From: Dehalococcoidia bacterium
GTDB lineage: Bacteria; Chloroflexota; Dehalococcoidia; UBA2979
Direction of reading: 5' to 3'
NCBI GenBank assembly: GCA_965219085.1
Contig: OZ244720.1
Coordinates: 384,001 to 448,000 of the forward strand
DNA length: 64,000 nt
Each line of letters starts with the position of its first letter. The stretch's first letter is position 1. Shown piece by piece: positions 51,885 to 60,063 of the stretch. Made by a program: the position numbers and the translations under genes. The notes below the pieces were generated by a model. The model was not told the DNA's origin. It ran no database searches and was given only the letters and a program-made list of their open reading frames with translations.

Positions 51885-53093
51885 ATGACTGGACCGCTCG
51901 AGGGGGCGCGGGTTCTCGACCTCACACAGGGGGTCGCGGGTCCGTACGCGACAAAGCTGTTCTCGGACTACGGCGCGGAGGTCATCAAGATCGAGCGCCC
52001 GGGAGGCGGCGACGCCTCGCGCCGCCTTGGCCCGTTCCCCAACGACGAGCCTCACATCGAGGCGAGCGGGATGTTCCTGCACCTCAACACCGGCAAGCGC
52101 AGCGTCACGCTCGACCTCAGCACCGCGACCGGGCGCAACCTGCTGCTCCGGCTCGCCGCCGAGGCGGACATCATCGTCGAGAGCTTCCGGCCCGGCGCCC
52201 TCGAACGCCTCGGCATCGGCCCCGACGTGCTCGCCGAGGCGAGCCCGGCGGCGGCGCTCGTGCGCATCTCGAACTTCGGCCAGGACGGCCCGTACCGGGA
52301 CTTCGAGGCCGACGACATGCTGCTCTACGCCTCCGGCGGCGTGATGCAGATCACCGGCGACCCCGACCGCGAGCCGCTCAAGCTGGGGCTCTACACGCCG
52401 CTGTTCTTCGCCGGCTGCGTGGTCGCCGGCATGATGATGGGTGCGCTCCGCACCTCCATGCGCGACCAGCAGGGCGAGCGCGTCGAGATTTCGATCCATG
52501 AGATCCTGACCGCCTCGATGGACCGCGGCGGTCCGAACATCGTCGCCCACCAGTACTCGGGCTCGCTCATGATCGAGCGCATGAAGAACGTCGTCTTCAG
52601 CGGGCTGCCGAGCGGCGTCTACCCCTGCGCCGACGGCTACGTGCAGGTTGCGACCCAGCCGGCGTGGTTCGCGCGGATGTGCCGCGCGATGGGCCGCGAG
52701 GACCTGCTCGAGGACGAGCACTTCGTCGCGAACGTCTACAACCCGGACTTCCTCCCCGAGGTCGAGGCGATCTTCTACCCCTGGATCCTCGCGCACACGA
52801 AGCAGGAGGTGATGGAGATCGCGCAGGCCGAGGGCTGGCCGGTGTGCGCCATCAACACCGTCGAGGACGCCTATCGCGATCCCGCCTTCCGCGCGCGCGG
52901 CTTCTTCCAGACCGTCGATCACCCCGTCGTGGGTCCGCTCGAATACCCCGGCCTGCCGGTGCGGTTCACCGCCACGCCGGGCGAGATCCGGCCCGCCCCC
53001 CTGCTCGGCGAGCACACGTTCGAGGTGCTCACCGAGCGCCTCGGCCACACGCCCGAGGAGGTCGCGATCCTCGGGCAGCGCGGCGTGATCTAG
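51885..53093 (+). CDS. CaiB/BaiF CoA-transferase (catalytic Asp apparently absent)
   Basis: GPLEGARV, LNTGKRS; YTPLFFAG at the Asp position. Confidence 0.9.
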   Translation: MTGPLEGARVLDLTQGVAGPYATKLFSDYGAEVIKIERPGGGDASRRLGPFPNDEPHIEASGMFLHLNTGKRSVTLDLSTATGRNLLLRLAAEADIIVESFRPGALERLGIGPDVLAEASPAAALVRISNFGQDGPYRDFEADDMLLYASGGVMQITGDPDREPLKLGLYTPLFFAGCVVAGMMMGALRTSMRDQQGERVEISIHEILTASMDRGGPNIVAHQYSGSLMIERMKNVVFSGLPSGVYPCADGYVQVATQPAWFARMCRAMGREDLLEDEHFVANVYNPDFLPEVEAIFYPWILAHTKQEVMEIAQAEGWPVCAINTVEDAYRDPAFRARGFFQTVDHPVVGPLEYPGLPVRFTATPGEIRPAPLLGEHTFEVLTERLGHTPEEVAILGQRGVI

Positions 53094-53102
53094 GAGTTGA
53101 CG

Positions 53103-54404
53103 ATGGCCGACCCGGCAAAACCACTCGACGGCGTACGCGTGCTGGCCCAGGCCATCGTCTGGGCGGGGCCGTTCGGGACGCTGATCCTCGCCGACCTCGG
53201 CGCCGAGGTGATCGAGATCGAGTCGCTCCAGCACCTCAACCCGACGCGCACGAACTTCCGGCACATCCCGCAGGAGTTGCTCGACGGCCGCGGCGGCGCC
53301 TCGTACCTCAACCGCGACGGCAGCGAGGGCTTCTGGAACCGCCAGGCGTGGTTCAACTACGCCAAACGCGGCTGCAAGTCCGTCACGCTCGACCTGCAGA
53401 GCGAGCGCGGGCACGAGCTGTTCCTTGACCTCGTGCGCCACAGCGACGCGTACATCGAGAACAACGCCGCCGACGTCGTCGACAACCTCGGCATCGGCTA
53501 CGAGGTGCTGCGCGAGGCCAACCCGCAGCTGATCATGGTTCGCTTCCCGGGCTTCGGCATCGAGGGGCCGTACCGCGACTTCAAGGGGTACGGCGCGAAT
53601 ATGGAAGCCGTCGCCGGCCACACCGCGATCCGCGGCTACGAGGGTTCTGATCCCTCCGACACGCCTGCCTCGCTGCACGGCGACCCCACCGCGGGCTCGG
53701 CGGTCGCGTTCGCACTACAGGCCGCGCTCTTCGCGCGCGACCGCACGGGCGAGGGTCAGCTCGTCGAGGTCTCGCAGGTCGAGGCCGTGACCCCGCACCT
53801 CGGGCACTCGTTCATGGACTACGCGATGAACGGCCGCGTGCAGGGCCACTGGGGCAACCGCCACCCCTCGATGGCGCCCTACGGCGCGTTCCCGTGCGCG
53901 GGCGACGACCGCTGGATCGCGATCGCGATCCCCTCGGACGAGGCGTTCGCGAGCCTGTGCGCCGAAATGGGCCGCCCCGAGCTGGCCGAGGACGAGCGCT
54001 TCGCCGACGCCGCGGTGCGCTACGCCAACACCGACGCGATCAACGCCGAGGTCGCCGCCTGGACCCCCGGGTTCCCGAACCACGATCTGATGGTGCGGCT
54101 CCAGGCCGCGGGCGTGCCGGCGATCGCGCTGACGCACCAGGAGGAGATGACGACCGACCCGCACCACGTCGCGCGCGGCTACTTCCAGCCGATCGAGCAA
54201 CACGAGGCGGGGACGCACCTCTTCCCCGGCCCGATGGCGCGCTTCGAGCGCACCTCGCTGCTCCCGGCGCGCCCCGCACCCACCCTCGGAGGCCATAACG
54301 AGGAGATCCTGCGCGGCGTGCTCGGCCTCGACGCCGACGCGTACCAGCAGCTGATCGACGACGAGGTGATCGGCACGGTCTACGTGGAGGACGCGACCGC
54401 CTGA
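53103..54404 (+). CDS. CaiB/BaiF CoA-transferase (Asp-containing subunit)
   Basis: PLDGVRV, WAGP, HGDPTAG. Confidence 0.92.
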   Translation: MADPAKPLDGVRVLAQAIVWAGPFGTLILADLGAEVIEIESLQHLNPTRTNFRHIPQELLDGRGGASYLNRDGSEGFWNRQAWFNYAKRGCKSVTLDLQSERGHELFLDLVRHSDAYIENNAADVVDNLGIGYEVLREANPQLIMVRFPGFGIEGPYRDFKGYGANMEAVAGHTAIRGYEGSDPSDTPASLHGDPTAGSAVAFALQAALFARDRTGEGQLVEVSQVEAVTPHLGHSFMDYAMNGRVQGHWGNRHPSMAPYGAFPCAGDDRWIAIAIPSDEAFASLCAEMGRPELAEDERFADAAVRYANTDAINAEVAAWTPGFPNHDLMVRLQAAGVPAIALTHQEEMTTDPHHVARGYFQPIEQHEAGTHLFPGPMARFERTSLLPARPAPTLGGHNEEILRGVLGLDADAYQQLIDDEVIGTVYVEDATA

Positions 54405-54436
54405 CGCCCGCACGCCCAGCCATGGGCGTCGATTTC

Positions 54437-54461
54437 CCGTACGTAGTACTCCGTACATGAT
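54437..54461 (+). promoter_or_regulatory. Shared upstream motif CCGTAC-N14-ATGAT, copy A
   Basis: Same motif and spacing at 55779 and 56440. Confidence 0.6.
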
Positions 54462-54555
54462 GAGCGCATCCACGATGTGATGCGCCGCCCGCGCCTGATC
54501 GGTGGCGGCGCGCCGGAGCCCCCTCCGGCCGCGGCTTGCTGGACTACAGGTGCGG

Positions 54556-55647
54556 ATGTCTCGCAACGGGGCGTTTCGGCGCTGGCTGCTGCTCCTGTCC
54601 GGGGCGCTCGTCTGCGCGCTGCTCGGCGCGGGCATCGTCCTCGTGGCCGGCGTCGGATTCGCGCAGGACGGCGGCGCCGAGGTCCGCATCACGGCCATGC
54701 GCCACGACGATGGGCGCATCGAGTTCGCGCTGCAGGAGCGTGCGGGCGCGGGGTGGAGCGACCGCCTGCTGCCGCGCGCGCGGTTCTTCCCGGCGAGCGG
54801 CCGCGAGGGCCGCTGGCTGGTCTCGACGCCGCTCACCGTTGGTCCTCTCGAGGCGACGGCCGTGTCGACTCCGACGGTTGCGCCCGCCGCGACCGCGACG
54901 CATGAGGCGACCGCAACGGTCGAACCGCCGCCTTCGGCGCTGAGTCTGGCCGGGATTGTGGTGGCGCCCGAGAACTGCGACGGCTACGACCGCGACCACT
55001 TCGCCAGCTATAACGCCCGATCCCTTCGCGACCGCTGGGATGCCGATGACGGCGCAGCCGACGGCGTCATCACGGGGTGGTACACCGGGCTGCGACTGGC
55101 GAACAGCGGGCAGGCCGTCCACGTCGAGCATGTCGTCGCCCTCAAGGAGGCGTGGTGCTCCGGGTATCGGGAGCCCTCGCTCGGTAACTGGCCAACCAAC
55201 CTTCGGCCCGCGCAGGCTGCGCTGAACTTGTCGAAGTCAGACCGCGACCCTGCGGAGTGGGATCGGCCGGACCTTCCCGGGTGGTGCCGGTATCTCGCGC
55301 TCCACGCCCAAGTGAAACGGCAACTGAGGATGACCGCCGACCGCGCGGAATTGGACTACATCGCCCGCTCCTGGGCCGCCGGCTGCGGCGATGTTGTGGC
55401 CGCTCCGGCGGCCGAGCCCACGGCGACATCCGAGCCAACGGTGACGCCGACACCGACGGCCGGAGCGGCGTATAGCGGGCCGCAGCCCGCCAGGACGTGC
55501 GGGGCGTTCGGCTGGCGCGTGGACCGTCGCACGCACCCCAACCTGTACGCCGCTCTCAGTGCTCTCGGGATGCGCGACGGCAATAGCGACGGGATCATGT
55601 GCAACGCGGAGCGGGCCTACCGCGGCCCCGACTACCCCGCGCCGTGA
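54556..55647 (+). CDS. Secreted protein: shared N-domain, PT linker, HNH/DUF1524-like nuclease domain, excalibur-like tail
   Basis: Signal peptide; EVRITAMRHDDGRIEFALQER; VEHVVALKEAW...NLSKSDRDPAEW; RDGNSDGIMC. Confidence 0.8.
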   Translation: MSRNGAFRRWLLLLSGALVCALLGAGIVLVAGVGFAQDGGAEVRITAMRHDDGRIEFALQERAGAGWSDRLLPRARFFPASGREGRWLVSTPLTVGPLEATAVSTPTVAPAATATHEATATVEPPPSALSLAGIVVAPENCDGYDRDHFASYNARSLRDRWDADDGAADGVITGWYTGLRLANSGQAVHVEHVVALKEAWCSGYREPSLGNWPTNLRPAQAALNLSKSDRDPAEWDRPDLPGWCRYLALHAQVKRQLRMTADRAELDYIARSWAAGCGDVVAAPAAEPTATSEPTVTPTPTAGAAYSGPQPARTCGAFGWRVDRRTHPNLYAALSALGMRDGNSDGIMCNAERAYRGPDYPAP

Positions 55648-55682
55648 GCCTCGGCCGGGCGGGTCTGCTACCGCCCGGCGCC

Positions 55683-55768
55683 GCCCAGGCGATGGCGCCC
55701 ACTTCCCGCAGCCTCGCGATCTCGGCGTCGTCGATGCCGTGCTCGGTGTCACCTCGTCGGCGTGGCGG
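55683..55768 (-). repeat. Degenerate copy of the 3' end of the CoA-transferase at 57517-58800
   Basis: Encodes EHGIDDAEIARLREVGAIA vs EHGVDDAEIARLRELSAIA; aligns with 57515-57601. Confidence 0.85.
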
Positions 55769-55778
55769 GCGGCATATC

Positions 55779-55803
55779 CCGTACATTGCATCCCATATAT
55801 GAT
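55779..55803 (+). promoter_or_regulatory. Shared upstream motif, copy B
   Basis: CCGTACattgcatcccatatATGAT. Confidence 0.6.
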
Positions 55804-55894
55804 GCCCGTATCCGTCACGTGATGCCTGCGCCCCGGCACGGCTCCGGCCCGGTGCTCGATACGGGTTGACCGGCGGCGTGGGAGGAATCGGGCC

Positions 55895-56431
55895 ATGGCG
55901 ATGTTGAGACCGAGCGCGAGGGCGCTCATCCTGGCGTTCTTCGTGGGTGTAATCGCCCTCGGCGCTGGCATCGCGGTGGCGCACGACAGCGGCACGGAGG
56001 TGCGGATCACCGCAATGCGTCTCGACGACGGTCGCATCGAGTTCGCGCTCCAGGAGCGGGAGGGCGAGGGATGGAGCGAGCGCATCCTCCCTCGCGCGCG
56101 CTTCTTCCCGGCGAGCGGGAGCGAGGGGCGATGGCTCAACTCCACGCCGATCACCGTCGGTGAGTTGGAAGCAGGGGCGTCGGCTACGCCCACGGCGACA
56201 CCGACCGCCACGCCCACGGCGACACCGACTGCTACGCCCACGGCGACACCGACTGCTACGCCCACGGCGACACCGACTGCCACGCCCACATCCGAGTTCC
56301 ACTGTCATTGTCGACGTGTCATCAACGCCGGTACTCGTTGTGACCGGCGATATACGGCGCAAGGGGGCCCCGGATATTGCCATACGGGGGAGTCCCACGG
56401 AGCCTTCAATACTTGGCCGCCGCGACACTAG
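55895..56431 (+). CDS. Secreted protein: shared N-domain, (ATPT)n linker, short Cys/His-rich C-terminus
   Basis: EVRITAMRLDDGRIEFALQER...PRARFFP; 24-bp tandem repeat at 56182-56290; GGAGG RBS. Confidence 0.8.
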   Translation: MAMLRPSARALILAFFVGVIALGAGIAVAHDSGTEVRITAMRLDDGRIEFALQEREGEGWSERILPRARFFPASGSEGRWLNSTPITVGELEAGASATPTATPTATPTATPTATPTATPTATPTATPTATPTSEFHCHCRRVINAGTRCDRRYTAQGGPGYCHTGESHGAFNTWPPRH

Positions 56432-56439
56432 CTAGTGTT

Positions 56440-56464
56440 CCGTACGTGATAGCCCATTCATGAT
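56440..56464 (+). promoter_or_regulatory. Shared upstream motif, copy C
   Basis: CCGTACgtgatagcccattcATGAT. Confidence 0.6.
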
Positions 56465-56554
56465 TGTGTGGGCTCGCGGGCGGCGGCCTCGAACGATCCG
56501 TACCCGCGATCCACAGTCGGAAGCGGCGCGGAACTGTCACAGGGGGAGCGGACG

Positions 56555-57487
56555 ATGACGACGATCGGCAAAAGTGGCAAGACGCTCATCATCGCGCTGC
56601 TCGTGGGCGTGATCGCGCTCGGCGTCGGCCTCGCGGTCGCGCACAACGACGGTACGGAGATTCGCATCACGGCGATGCGCCACGACGACGGGCGCATCGA
56701 GTTCGCGGTCCAGGAGCGCGAAGGCGAGGGGTGGGGCGAGCGTGTCCTGCCGCGCGCACGCTTCTTCCCGGCAAGCGGCCGCGAGGGCCGGTGGCTCAAC
56801 TCCACGCCGATCACCGTCGGCGTGGTCGACGAGCTGGAGACAGCGACGGCCACCCCATCACCCACCGCTACGGCAACGCCGAGCGCAACGGCGACCCCTG
56901 TACCAGCGGCTACACCGATGCCTACTGTAACGGCGACGCCCGCGCCGGCCCAGAGCGCATCAGCATCGCGCACATATACCATCGAGGACCCGCACGACCG
57001 CTTCCAGGTCAACGACATCACTGAGCTTCAGGTAAAGGTTGGGGCGACGACCATCGCAATACGGGTTACGTCAGGCGAGTTCTTCTCGTTCTCCGAGCAA
57101 TGGACCGGAGACAGCAGTTACGTCCACCTGAACTTCGACTTCGATAACGATCCTGGTGAGCATGGCTTGTACGACGATGATCTCCTGGTGGCTGTGCGTG
57201 GAAGTACGGCGACGTTCTACGATACCACTGGCGACACGTTCGTTCGATTGGGCAGTTCTAGCGTAACTCAGGAAGATGAGTCGGGGGCAACCTGCACAGT
57301 CGTCTGTGAGGTTCTGTCATTCGAGATCCCGAGAGAACACTTTGGCGACGCGACGATTGCGGCTGTGTCGGTAACCGGCGCATGGGCCCTTTCGTCGCCG
57401 GATTGCGATAGCTACGGCTGCTCTTGGTACGACTATGATTGGGTGCCGGATGTCCTGGAGCCGCATCCGGTCATCGCCCTCGACTGA
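56555..57487 (+). CDS. Secreted protein: shared N-domain, PT linker, acidic beta-rich domain
   Basis: EIRITAMRHDDGRIEFAVQER...PRARFFP; C-terminal DNA visibly A/T-richer. Confidence 0.8.
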   Translation: MTTIGKSGKTLIIALLVGVIALGVGLAVAHNDGTEIRITAMRHDDGRIEFAVQEREGEGWGERVLPRARFFPASGREGRWLNSTPITVGVVDELETATATPSPTATATPSATATPVPAATPMPTVTATPAPAQSASASRTYTIEDPHDRFQVNDITELQVKVGATTIAIRVTSGEFFSFSEQWTGDSSYVHLNFDFDNDPGEHGLYDDDLLVAVRGSTATFYDTTGDTFVRLGSSSVTQEDESGATCTVVCEVLSFEIPREHFGDATIAAVSVTGAWALSSPDCDSYGCSWYDYDWVPDVLEPHPVIALD

Positions 57488-57516
57488 TCGTGGACGATAG
57501 TCGGTCGGCGTGCCGC

Positions 57517-58800
57517 TCAGGCGATGGCGCTCAGTTCCCGCAGCCGCGCGATCTCCGCGTCGTCGACGCCGTGCTCGTGTAGCACCTCGTCCGTGTGGCG
57601 GCCGAGGGGCGGTGAGGGGCGCGTCGAGCCCGTCGGTGTCTCCGACATCGACACGATCGGGCCGACCATCGTCTCGGGGCCCGTCAGCTCGTGCTCGAGC
57701 TCGATCATGTAGCCCATCGCCTGCACCTGCGGGTCGGTGGCGAGGTCCTCGGGCCAGTTCACCTTCGAGATCGGCGCGCCCTCACGGTCGAAGATCTCGA
57801 GCCACTCGTCCATGGTCCTGGTGAGCATGATCTTGCGGATGCGCTCCAGCATCACGTCGACGAGCTTGCGGTTCTCCGCCGGAAGCGAGTCGAAGTCGGG
57901 GTCGGCCGTCGGGTCGTCCTCGACGCCGATCGCGCGCCGCATCTGGTCGCGGTTGAGCGGGGTGAGCGCCCCAAGGATGACGCCGCCGTCCTTGACGGCG
58001 TAGCCGCCGTAGAACAGGCGGGCCGCCGCCCGCCCCATCTGGTCGAAGAGGTTGCCGCGCGCCGCGATCAGCTCGCGGTAGCTGCCGCCGGCCTCCTGCA
58101 CCTCGCGCATGCGGTCCAGCGCCCGGTCGGTGGTCTGGGCGTCGATCGCGGGCAGCTTGCCGATGCGCGTGCCCTGCATGGCGAGGCCGGCCTGCAGCAG
58201 CGATGTCTGGACGTGCTGGCCCTTGCCGGTGCGCTCGCGGTGGAAGAGCGCCGCGGAGATCGCCATCGCGCCGGCCAGCCCGGCGTGGAAGTCGGCGGGC
58301 GCGGTCGCGGTGATGATCTCCGGTGCGCCGTGCTCGTCGACCTTGCCGTCACCGGCGAGGAGGCCCGAGTAGGCCTGCGCCACGGCGTCCGAGCCCGAAC
58401 GGAACTCGCTGGGACCGCCACGCCCGAAGCCGGTGTTCTCGAAGTAGACGAGGTCCGGGCGGAACTGCTTCAGCGTTTCGTAGTCCACGCGCAGCCGCTC
58501 CGGCACGCCGGAGCGAGCGTTGATCACGAACACGTCGAAGCCCGCGATGATGCGGTGCACCAGCTCCTGGGCGTCGGTCGACTGCAGGTCCATGACGAGC
58601 GACCGCTTGCCGCGGTTGAGCGAGTGGAAGCCCTTGCTCTCGCCAGGCACGAAGCCGCCGGACTGGCGGATGCCCTCGCCGCCCGGGGGTTCGACCTTGA
58701 TCACGTCGGCGCCGAGGTCGACGAGGTTGAGGCCGCAGTAGGGCCCGGCCACGATCTGCGAGACCTCGAACACCTTGATGCCATCCAGCGGACCCGGCAT
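57517..58800 (-). CDS. CaiB/BaiF CoA-transferase, close paralog of 5040-6320
   Basis: MPGPLDGIKVFEVSQI, NRGKRS, ADFHAG. Confidence 0.93.
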   Translation of the reverse strand: MPGPLDGIKVFEVSQIVAGPYCGLNLVDLGADVIKVEPPGGEGIRQSGGFVPGESKGFHSLNRGKRSLVMDLQSTDAQELVHRIIAGFDVFVINARSGVPERLRVDYETLKQFRPDLVYFENTGFGRGGPSEFRSGSDAVAQAYSGLLAGDGKVDEHGAPEIITATAPADFHAGLAGAMAISAALFHRERTGKGQHVQTSLLQAGLAMQGTRIGKLPAIDAQTTDRALDRMREVQEAGGSYRELIAARGNLFDQMGRAAARLFYGGYAVKDGGVILGALTPLNRDQMRRAIGVEDDPTADPDFDSLPAENRKLVDVMLERIRKIMLTRTMDEWLEIFDREGAPISKVNWPEDLATDPQVQAMGYMIELEHELTGPETMVGPIVSMSETPTGSTRPSPPLGRHTDEVLHEHGVDDAEIARLRELSAIA

Positions 58801-58950: not shown

Positions 58951-59229
58951 TCAGGCCGACGCTGAGCTATGTGTGCTGCTGCCCGTTGAGCGCTCTTTGA
59001 AGCGATCGAGGGCGCGATCGGCCATTCCGGCAATGTCGAAGAAGTAGCGTGCGTGTGTGCGCCTGAGGTCGTCTTCGGACTCACCGTAGAAGAGCACAAC
59101 CTCGTGGCTGCTGCCCAAGGCCTCGCGCTCGCGCTCTGAGTACGCCGCAAGCGCCTCACCGACTTCCTCGATCGGGGTGACGCTGACCTCGCTGGTGTCA
59201 TGGTCGTAGTCGAGCAGGAAGTACTTCAT
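58951..59229 (-). CDS. Putative CapRel-type antitoxin/sensor, stand-alone
   Basis: YFLL...A..AY...E...EVVL...S..DLRRTHARYF resembles the CapRel C-terminal domain; ATGA overlap with the SAS gene. Confidence 0.65.
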   Translation of the reverse strand: MKYFLLDYDHDTSEVSVTPIEEVGEALAAYSEREREALGSSHEVVLFYGESEDDLRRTHARYFFDIAGMADRALDRFKERSTGSSTHSSASA

Positions 59230-60017
59230 TCGAACATCCGTGTGAGCGCGTCGATCGCGTCGCCCACAATCCGTTGCTGGGCGTCGCTGAGGGCTACTTC
59301 GAACTCGCCCGGCAGTGTATCAGAGGGGATCGATGCCAGAGCATGTAGCTGCATCGCCGTGGCTGCTGCAGTCAGCAGTTCCATCAGCGCACCTCCAAGG
59401 TCTGGCGCGTTTCGATCATCAGTGCCGTCAGACTCAAGGCGACGTGCTGCGGTAGCGTCCAATCCCGCGCAAAGCAGGGATGCATCATCCAGCACCTTGC
59501 GCGCCGCAGACGGGCCGCCTCCGTACTTGATCTCGGGATCCAGATTGTTTGCGAGTGCCTCAGACGCATTCGCCCACATGTCTTCCCACAGCGTGCGCAC
59601 CTGCACCTCAACCGGCCGCCCCTGCGCTCGAACGACGATGTGGATCGCGCGGTATCCGTCGCGCGGAGTCGTCTGGTAGTCACGCTCGCGCATGACCTCC
59701 CAGGCTCCGCGGATGCGATAGAGCACCTGCCGCTGCTCGACCATCGTCGGCAGGACTACGCGACACCCAGCGATGTCCTCCAGCCGAGACAGGTCGCTCG
59801 TCGAGCGGCGAAGCTTCTCGACCACGGTCTCGAAGCGCTTCAGGCGTGATTGGACCGGCGCACCGTCTGCGAAGCTCCCGATGGCTTGGGCAACTTCGAG
59901 CAGCGGCTCAGCGAATGTGTCCCGATAGTCGGCGTAGATCTGGCGATCCGCCTCACTCGGCGTTTCGTCTTTGCGCAGGCGCTCACCCGCGCGTCTGACT
60001 TGACTGCGACTCACCAT
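59226..60017 (-). CDS. RelA/SpoT small alarmone synthetase (toxSAS, CapRel-like)
   Basis: SRSQVRRAG, RLKR..T..EKL, DIAGCR, DGYRAIH, EVQVRT...WA. Confidence 0.88.
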   Translation of the reverse strand: MVSRSQVRRAGERLRKDETPSEADRQIYADYRDTFAEPLLEVAQAIGSFADGAPVQSRLKRFETVVEKLRRSTSDLSRLEDIAGCRVVLPTMVEQRQVLYRIRGAWEVMRERDYQTTPRDGYRAIHIVVRAQGRPVEVQVRTLWEDMWANASEALANNLDPEIKYGGGPSAARKVLDDASLLCAGLDATAARRLESDGTDDRNAPDLGGALMELLTAAATAMQLHALASIPSDTLPGEFEVALSDAQQRIVGDAIDALTRMFE

Positions 60018-60063
60018 GCTTGATCCAGCGTCGCACATTGCCGGGCCCCGCGCCCGGCGCCGG

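Follow-up and report, generated by a model that had tools for sequence, protein, structure and literature searches.

The genes described here lie in a 64,000-nt stretch of the genome of a Dehalococcoidia bacterium (Chloroflexota; contig OZ244720.1, positions 384,001 to 448,000), which is called the window below and to which coordinates refer unless a genome contig is named. On its forward strand three consecutive genes, A, B and C (54556..57487), encode proteins that share a short N-terminal module, the head, and carry different C-terminal cargo. The head represents a new domain family, its copies in A, B and C are under strong purifying selection, and the array occupies a variable site at which modules have been exchanged between genomes. 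We tentatively favor, with confidence a little short of even, the view that the module is a pairing and cell-envelope retention unit and that the genes are not a toxin array. In this model A, B and C would be exported by the Sec pathway and, after removal of the signal peptide, each mature protein would begin with one beta module of ~55 residues. The norm of the family is a tandem pair, modeled as two repeats packed in one compact unit; since single-repeat heads are predicted to pair as well, A, B and C may act as homo- or heterodimers. The paired unit would hold the protein non-covalently at the cell envelope, the Pro/Thr linker would serve as a spacer pushing the cargo outward, and the head would do the job of the putative lipid anchor of the orthologous nuclease of sister genomes, the product of gene A being a putative extracellular DNase.

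Gene A (54556..55647, 363 residues), whose ATG start agrees with that of the orthologue in genome G416, encodes a predicted signal peptide, one head module, a linker rich in Pro and Thr (PT) and in Ala, a GmrSD_C-like nuclease, a PT linker and a Cys-containing tail. Its signal segment (54556..54666, residues 1-37, with a hydrophobic N-terminus) is delimited by the sequence itself and by the family-wide pattern of A-x-A followed by Q or H, and its head (54679..54843) is a single repeat covering residues 42-96 (E 3.3e-31 in a search with the domain of B). Gene B (55895..56431, 178 residues) combines a predicted signal peptide, a head (55997..56161, one repeat, residues 35-89), a (TPTA)n linker and a 46-residue C-terminal module with four Cys and five His (56291..56428). 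Gene C (56555..57487, 310 residues, equal to the 310-residue protein P0067) has a predicted signal peptide, a head (56657..56821, one repeat, residues 35-89), a PT/Ala linker and an acidic orphan cargo (56990..57484); its ATG is M30 of the listed open reading frame (ORF), and some computations used a start at 56552, one codon more than the ATG at 56555. Each of the three N-termini is basic at first and then hydrophobic for 20-27 residues, ending in GFA before Q (A) or AVA before H (B and C). A few residues further on stands the common 55-residue stretch EVRITAMRxDDGRIEFALQER.G.GW..R.LPRARFFPASG.EGRWL.STP.TVG. With the domain of B as query, the copy of A is 82% and that of C 84% identical, and matches within the genome reach E 1e-31 to 1e-41, far beyond chance. 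Past the PT-rich linkers a whole-protein alignment finds no similarity among the three. The ORFs and the alignment thus bear out what a preliminary description of this DNA had reported, namely three tandem genes with signal peptides, a nearly constant 55-residue domain and divergent C-terminal parts.

At the nucleotide level the heads are 82-85% identical. Because most differences are synonymous, with a synonymous divergence (dS) of 0.53-0.72 and a ratio of nonsynonymous to synonymous divergence (dN/dS) of 0.08-0.16, the heads of A, B and C are old paralogues under strong purifying selection and not fresh copies. Recent gene conversion or fresh copying among the three was considered and is ruled out by these dS values.

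The preliminary description had not recognized the constant domain, and the libraries searched do not name it either. Scans of A, B and C against Pfam and NCBIfam gave no meaningful match, only low-complexity hits to the PT segments (E>=0.009); the constant domain itself had no match at the cut-offs applied (E<=1-10), and 20 separate copies of the module gave nothing in Pfam at E<=10, SLH (PF00395) included. A profile search of PDB sequences with the tandem profile returned a single row at E 0.87, which is no relative, and comparison of the single-repeat and tandem models with solved structures produced no convincing fold match. A propeller-blade lectin of the RSL type was considered and rejected, as no such structure was among the fold matches listed. 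The ESM Atlas yielded no usable match for the tandem pair. In the literature the motif string RARFFP occurred in no paper found, and topical searches gave general papers on sponge symbionts, none of them on the module, a result that does not in itself show the module to be unpublished. The module is a new domain family put to a known use.

A family profile of 60 positions, built from alignment A3, matches A, B and C at E 2.0e-29, 2.4e-31 and 8.4e-31, respectively, each over positions 2-59. Residues R7, A10, F20, R39, F41, G48, R49, W50, L51 and S53 are among those found invariant or conserved in at least 90% of copies, and R17 and E19 are conserved too. In its own 3.3-Mb genome the module is present in 24 copies (E<=1e-5) at ~14 loci, and an HMMER pass over 1.84 billion cluster representatives returned 1640 at E<=1e-3, 1275 at E<=1e-10 and 367 at E<=1e-30. 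Hence the module neither matches a characterized Pfam family nor is confined to the three genes, the two outcomes that the preliminary description had named as refuting its proposal. A word-indexed protein search gave 162 carriers, and the few with organism names are labeled Chloroflexi or Chloroflexota bacterium. The distribution is narrow: the module occurs in 18/18 other genomes of the genus (4-23 matches each), in 1/6 other genera of the family and in 0/16 genomes drawn from other families within the class, and it was found in at least 9 of 401 genomes of an even sample of the phylum in which 16 candidates were scored per genome. A 1380-residue, RCC1-rich protein of a related metagenome-assembled genome (L034 234-4373, minus strand) has two very divergent copies with longer insertions (domain E 0.0026 and 15), which suggests that the family extends beyond the reach of the profile. 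In the own genome some module genes are split over two overlapping frames or truncated (G000:C1 975645-977422, minus; 1814350-1815659, plus; 3137969-3138848, minus; 1096993-1097298, plus); in this one-contig assembly they are either pseudogenes or single-base assembly errors.

The architecture of the family was examined in 261 carriers, a biased census in which the word-indexed set favors B-like heads and the HMMER set, made of the highest scorers, favors multi-copy proteins. Two copies of the module are present in 192 carriers, one in 50, four in 14, three in 4 and five in 1. The module is N-terminal in 214 proteins, with the first repeat starting at residue 33 (median), whereas 29 carriers are short proteins, 16 bear the module at the very C-terminal end and 2 within the chain. 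Over the 30 residues that follow the last repeat the median P/T/S/A fraction is 0.47, and in A, B and C alike the module stands after an AxA-type signal segment and before the PT-rich linker. In the carriers considered for this purpose (up to 216), the module is preceded by an uncharged run of 22.5 residues (median). Counted from the end of that run, position -1 is A in 119 carriers, position -3 is A, V or G in 140, and position +1 is Q or H in 133. By this crude count of residue patterns the run fits signal peptidase I, and on that account mature proteins probably start 0-9 residues before the module; since the hydrophobic runs are long, an uncleaved signal-anchor is possible too.

The placement of the module bears on two related ideas about export. 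Two facts make the export-targeting domain proposed in the preliminary description unlikely: the module comes after what looks like an ordinary AxA signal peptide, and 16/261 carriers have it at the C-terminus. It is also very improbable that the module is a sorting tag for a dedicated export or processing enzyme, comparable to LPXTG, PEP-CTERM or the C-terminal domains of the type IX secretion system (T9SS). Such a tag would be in keeping with the fixed place beside the signal peptide in most carriers, with a lineage-restricted family and with the lack of a sortase match in the own genome; yet the module is a folded and duplicated domain of 55 residues in one to five copies, it can be C-terminal or internal, and no co-occurring enzyme turned up, although none was searched for.

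Repeat identity is positional, in that first repeats are nearest to first repeats in 140/195 cases and second repeats to second repeats in 154/195. Among single heads the nearest neighbor is another single head in 54/63, and 2/63 are fragments of the frameshifted genes of this genome. From this pattern it follows that A, B and C have heads of a separate subfamily with one repeat.

The cargo is varied and extracellular in character. Among 100 representatives, 19 carry RCC1, 13 LRR, 9 Trypsin_2, 4 CAP (one of them together with RCC1) and 2 cadherin or fn3 domains; SLH, matrixin, Thioredoxin_4, PD40, ankyrin, Big_5, PPC and CarboxypepD_reg occur once each, and 46/100 match no Pfam family at E<=1e-6. 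The word-indexed set adds SNase, GmrSD_C, Gmad2, Glug and CARDB. According to their translations, the carriers of the own genome include several LRR proteins, an RCC1 protein, a trypsin-like protein, a giant of 1879 residues and a 910-residue protein with a C-terminal module; SBP_bac_3, a family-3 solute-binding domain, was identified in another of them (E 1.2e-16). The swappable nature of the cargo, as claimed earlier, is evident from the 61 single-head proteins, which fall into 18 unrelated cargo clusters, and from pairs with heads at least 85% identical, in which the cargo is unrelated in 142 and related in 80.

This repertoire is also what could be expected if the module bound, in the manner of a lectin or adhesin, to something outside the cell, such as host matrix, particles or other cells, and if the proteins were released with their cargo aimed at that target and not at the own envelope. 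Much of the cargo found in the 100 representatives consists of interaction repeats of eukaryotic type (RCC1 and LRR, plus ankyrin, cadherin, fn3 and CAP), the predicted signal peptides look cleavable and would leave no membrane anchor, and the family shows large expansions within a restricted lineage. Such a binder is nevertheless rather unlikely in our estimation.

Structure prediction accords with a unit made of two repeats. The model of a single repeat consists of a long beta hairpin and short strands and has a predicted local distance difference test (pLDDT) value of 80.4 and a predicted template modeling score (pTM) of 0.64, whereas the tandem pair forms one compact body with much better values (pLDDT 91.0, pTM 0.82). 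When two single repeats were modeled as a homodimer the score was 0.57 vs 0.02 for the best control; contacts agree to at least 94% among the three runs, and the partner pLDDT is at least 82. The mark so reached was attained by 20/30 proteins solved as one-chain pairs and by 1/23 solved as single chains, counts that are only rough given the custom alignment. The model thus supports, as a prediction, the pairing of single heads, and neither this nor the tandem pair as the normal state of the module had been part of the preliminary description. The predicted dimer interface comprises residues 2-14, 16, 18, 20-23, 25, 33, 36, 39, 41 and 45-61, in which R7, A10, F20, R39, F41, G48, R49, W50, L51 and S53, most of the conserved set, are located. 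The conserved R17 and E19 fall outside the listed interface and are therefore candidates for a functional surface; they could also form the binding site of an adhesin.

These models lend some weight to a simpler role, in which the module would be only a scaffold for pairing or folding (a dimerizer or a rigid N-terminal cap) that binds no target, retention being achieved by other means or not at all. The homodimer score, the compact tandem model and the concentration of conserved positions in the inter-repeat interface are in line with it, and so is the fact that the nuclease and the Cys/His module, one chain in genome G414, are found here on two single-head chains that pairing could reunite. 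As the pair is already contained within one chain in 192/261 carriers, however, dimerization of cargo cannot be the general role of the family, and a mere cap would hardly be kept at a dN/dS of ~0.1, across ~1640 clusters and at either terminus. We regard a pure scaffold as unlikely.

Of the three cargoes, that of gene A (54976..55401, with the motif VEHVVALKEAW) had been described as an HNH/DUF1524-like nuclease with an excalibur-like tail. In Pfam scans PF07510 (GmrSD_C/DUF1524) matches neither the cargo nor any of its five orthologues at E<=5, and a search of PDB sequences with the cargo found nothing. The kinship is transitive: over 135 columns the cargo is 37% identical (E 2e-12) to a region of protein P0064 that passes the PF07510 cut-off (28.9 bits vs 23), while A itself stays below the Pfam threshold. 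In this alignment HVEHVVALKEAW of A corresponds to HVDHIVALKEAY of P0064, the putative His-containing catalytic motif. P0064 is arranged with the nuclease N-terminal and two modules C-terminal. The C-terminal tail of A (55462..55644, residues 303-363) contains CGAFG and MRDGNSDGIMCN. Its likeness to excalibur is one of motif, DGNSDGIMCN presumably resembling the excalibur Ca-binding motif, and the 55-residue tail and those of the five orthologues have no match to PF05901 (Excalibur) at E<=5.

The 46-residue tail of B had been taken for a swappable cargo. The Cys/His tail is indeed present, but it proves to be a module in its own right, conserved at the C-terminus with 89-93% identity in carriers whose other parts differ (P0263-P0266); it also stands after PT linkers on the nuclease of G414 (L028) and on proteins P0264-P0266, which have a lipoprotein-type signal and a middle part that by eye we take to be lipoprotein or SH3b-like. 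From its sequence the Cys/His part is a second mobile terminal module and not a free cargo; gene B therefore consists of head, linker and tail with nothing between. The cargo of C is acidic (isoelectric point 4.05; 29 D+E vs 6 K+R) and an orphan, with a self-match only in the word-indexed search and one relative of 31% identity in G447. The ESM Atlas gave a lead to PF09985 (0.95, 186 shared features), which the Pfam scan does not confirm. The searches yielded no functional assignment for the tail of B or the cargo of C.

The three genes are located between two CoA-transferase-like genes, so named by reading of the sequence, that form the conserved borders of a variable site. The left one (53097..54404, plus strand, 435 residues; 85-88% match in sister genomes) and the convergent right one (57517..58800, minus strand, 427 residues) are together 85-90% conserved in sister genomes, and what lies between them varies. 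In G406 there is nothing but 81 nt; in G407 (L031) and G408 (L029) the nuclease gene stands alone and abuts the transferase gene; in G403 (L030) it is accompanied by other DNA, and in G418 (L032) by one head-bearing gene with a cargo unlike that of C. The space is filled in G414 (L028) by one gene of 419 codons that unites nuclease, tail, PT linker and the Cys/His module of B in a single chain, and in G416 (L035) by a gene in which an SNase domain stands between an A-type head and an A-type tail, together with another gene that bears a head. The syntenic orthologues of the nuclease (L028-L032) have no head in 5/5 cases; instead, they have a Cys signal that is lipobox-like by eye (VAAC, AASC, IAAC, VLAC and VAAC, a pattern we assume to be a true lipobox) and a PT linker of ~100 residues.

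Pairwise comparison discloses the mosaic. Gene A and the G416 protein are 74% identical over residues 1-108 and 85% over residues 303-363, with an unrelated middle, whereas gene A and the G414 protein are 84% identical over residues 129-362 and have unrelated N-termini; the breakpoints therefore coincide with the module end and with linkers. The SNase domain of the G416 variant is well supported (PF00565, E 3.9e-15, 56.6 bits vs a cut-off of 21, profile positions 1-106 of 107), and the replacement in place of one nuclease by a non-homologous one points to selection for extracellular DNase activity. Between A and B a 92-nt relic (55680..55771, minus strand) reproduces the 3' end that the convergent transferase gene has at 57512-57604, with 86-91% identity and a 1-nt indel (repeats D3, 91%, and D10, 86%). 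It therefore marks the old junction of nuclease and transferase, B and C having been inserted later. Whole modules (head, type of nuclease and Cys/His tail) were thus exchanged between genomes at domain and linker borders in this locus. The earlier suggestion of recombination at the constant region or linker holds for the module end and the PT linkers between genomes, and not for recent events among the three heads. The linker of B (56168-56290) is a near-perfect array of the 12-nt (TPTA)n unit (repeat family D2), and the 1879-residue carrier (G000:C1 772770-778409, minus strand) contains a run of ~80 TP dipeptides; the recombination from linker to linker that genomes display among themselves probably uses such TP and TPTA repeats as substrates.

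The A/T-richer composition noted earlier for the cargo of B and C was confirmed. Against a genome GC content of 0.698, the cargo of C has 0.574, below 99.5% of 400-nt genome windows, and the tail of B has 0.609, within the lowest 2% of these windows. At third codon positions (GC3) the C cargo has 0.685 vs 0.913 in the C head, and the B tail 0.587 vs 0.879 in the B head. The nuclease of A (GC 0.683) and the heads are ordinary in this respect.

Constant N-terminal and variable C-terminal parts, a nuclease in gene A and compositionally foreign cargo in B and C are all traits of polymorphic toxins, and the array could be read as a set of such toxins or effectors in which the head is a trafficking domain, the nuclease is the toxin and immunity genes were lost or went unrecognized. 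This is the least likely of the rival readings, highly improbable and already disfavored by the preliminary description on the grounds that no immunity genes are visible. The ORF list of the locus agrees, as it has no candidate immunity ORF between or after A, B and C: the gap between A and B holds the transferase relic only, that between B and C measures 123 nt, and the convergent CoA-transferase gene directly adjoins the 3' end of gene C. In addition, most cargo of the family is non-toxic, the orthologues of the nuclease look like ordinary lipoproteins, the nuclease was replaced in G416 by an SNase, a type common among secreted DNases, the head follows a plain signal peptide, and the ORFs flanking the array include no secretion-system genes.

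A role in envelope retention, which we tentatively prefer, fits the cell type. The own genome has three matches to transpeptidases of penicillin-binding proteins and two to FtsW/RodA, and peptidoglycan is probably made; SLH and sortase have no match in it (completeness 92.7%), so that another retention device would be needed. That the head stands where a nuclease orthologous in its other parts has a putative lipid anchor was likewise counted in favor of retention, and surface anchoring, as had been proposed for the constant domain, is plausible. The argument that a solute-binding protein must be tethered was dropped, since the carrier with the SBP_bac_3 domain has no ABC-transporter genes as neighbors and the argument is therefore inapplicable.

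Several points weigh against a pairing and retention unit. Family member P0157 also has SLH domains, and two kinds of wall anchor in one protein would be redundant. No ABC-transporter genes lie beside the carrier with the solute-binding domain. The swap of lipid anchor and head indicates that N-terminal parts are exchangeable and not that they do the same job. The predicted pairing depends on model confidence with a custom alignment, for which the calibration counts hold roughly, and both carrier censuses are biased, one toward B-like heads and the other toward multi-copy top scorers.

A more far-reaching proposal can also be made, according to which the module would be a new fold that founded a lineage-specific surface-display system in wall-bearing Chloroflexota apparently devoid of sortase and SLH. 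The two-repeat unit would dock on the envelope, and the single-repeat subfamily would pair proteins in combination, reuniting the nuclease (A) with the Cys/His module (B) that form one chain in G414. Taken as a whole this proposal is speculative, and we consider it doubtful.

With respect to the surroundings, the CoA-transferase-like genes of 51885-54404 and 57517-58800 belong to a large paralogous set, as a 5.7-kb query matched dozens of places per genome with 67-80% identity. Further downstream, a gene on the minus strand (59226-60038) encodes a 269-residue protein with a RelA_SpoT domain (PF04607, E 3e-17) and lies directly upstream of an ORF of 92 residues (58951-59229, minus strand) that has no Pfam family. 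The GC content of this stretch is lowered (0.60-0.64), and the two genes could be a small alarmone synthetase and its partner. A scan of 54300-57700 for promoters and terminators was uninformative (no promoters, and a single terminator-like site that lies within gene A but on the other strand).

Large proteins of the LRR, RCC1, ankyrin, cadherin and protease kinds from uncultured Chloroflexota are numerous among the ~1640 clusters with the module, and no library searched names it; the family merits a curated profile that would end the annotation of its carriers as hypothetical. Knowledge of the ligand and of the pairing of the module would tell where the carriers sit and whether their target is the own surface or a partner organism, and the module would supply a compact, linker-ready tag for display or dimerization. 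The locus is moreover a clean natural case of cassette exchange at the level of domains, since across sister genomes the same site is empty or holds one gene, a fused gene or three genes.

Among known systems, the SLH domain (PF00395) is a repeat of ~55 residues that occurs in multiples packing as a unit and is found in exoproteins of varied cargo, either C-terminally or close behind the signal peptide. Repeat size, packing of multiples in one unit, terminal placement and variety of cargo are thus common to both; however, SLH repeats are helical and normally triple, whereas the module is all-beta and normally double, with no SLH match in A, B, C or the own genome, and its binding to a wall polymer is putative. 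Dockerins are Ca-binding, helical and mostly C-terminal modules with a known cohesin partner. A short constant module, PT linkers, many unrelated cargoes and the logic of pairing and duplicated segments recall them, although the module described here is all-beta, mostly N-terminal and has no Pfam match, and a cohesin partner is a feature of dockerins. With polymorphic toxins (CDI, Rhs) the array shares a constant N-terminus, a variable C-terminus, an atypical cargo composition and the exchange of cassettes between strains; it differs from them in that there are no immunity genes, the cargo consists mostly of binding repeats and hydrolases, and export is by a plain signal peptide. Secreted nucleases of the GmrSD_C/DUF1524 and SNase types, both extracytoplasmic DNase types, are the closest counterparts of the cargo of A, which aligns with a PF07510-positive protein and whose G416 variant carries PF00565, yet A remains below every Pfam threshold and its N-terminal head is foreign to those families. 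Altogether, the module system falls outside the families of SLH-, dockerin- and CWB-type modular exoproteins and yet resembles them in its working.

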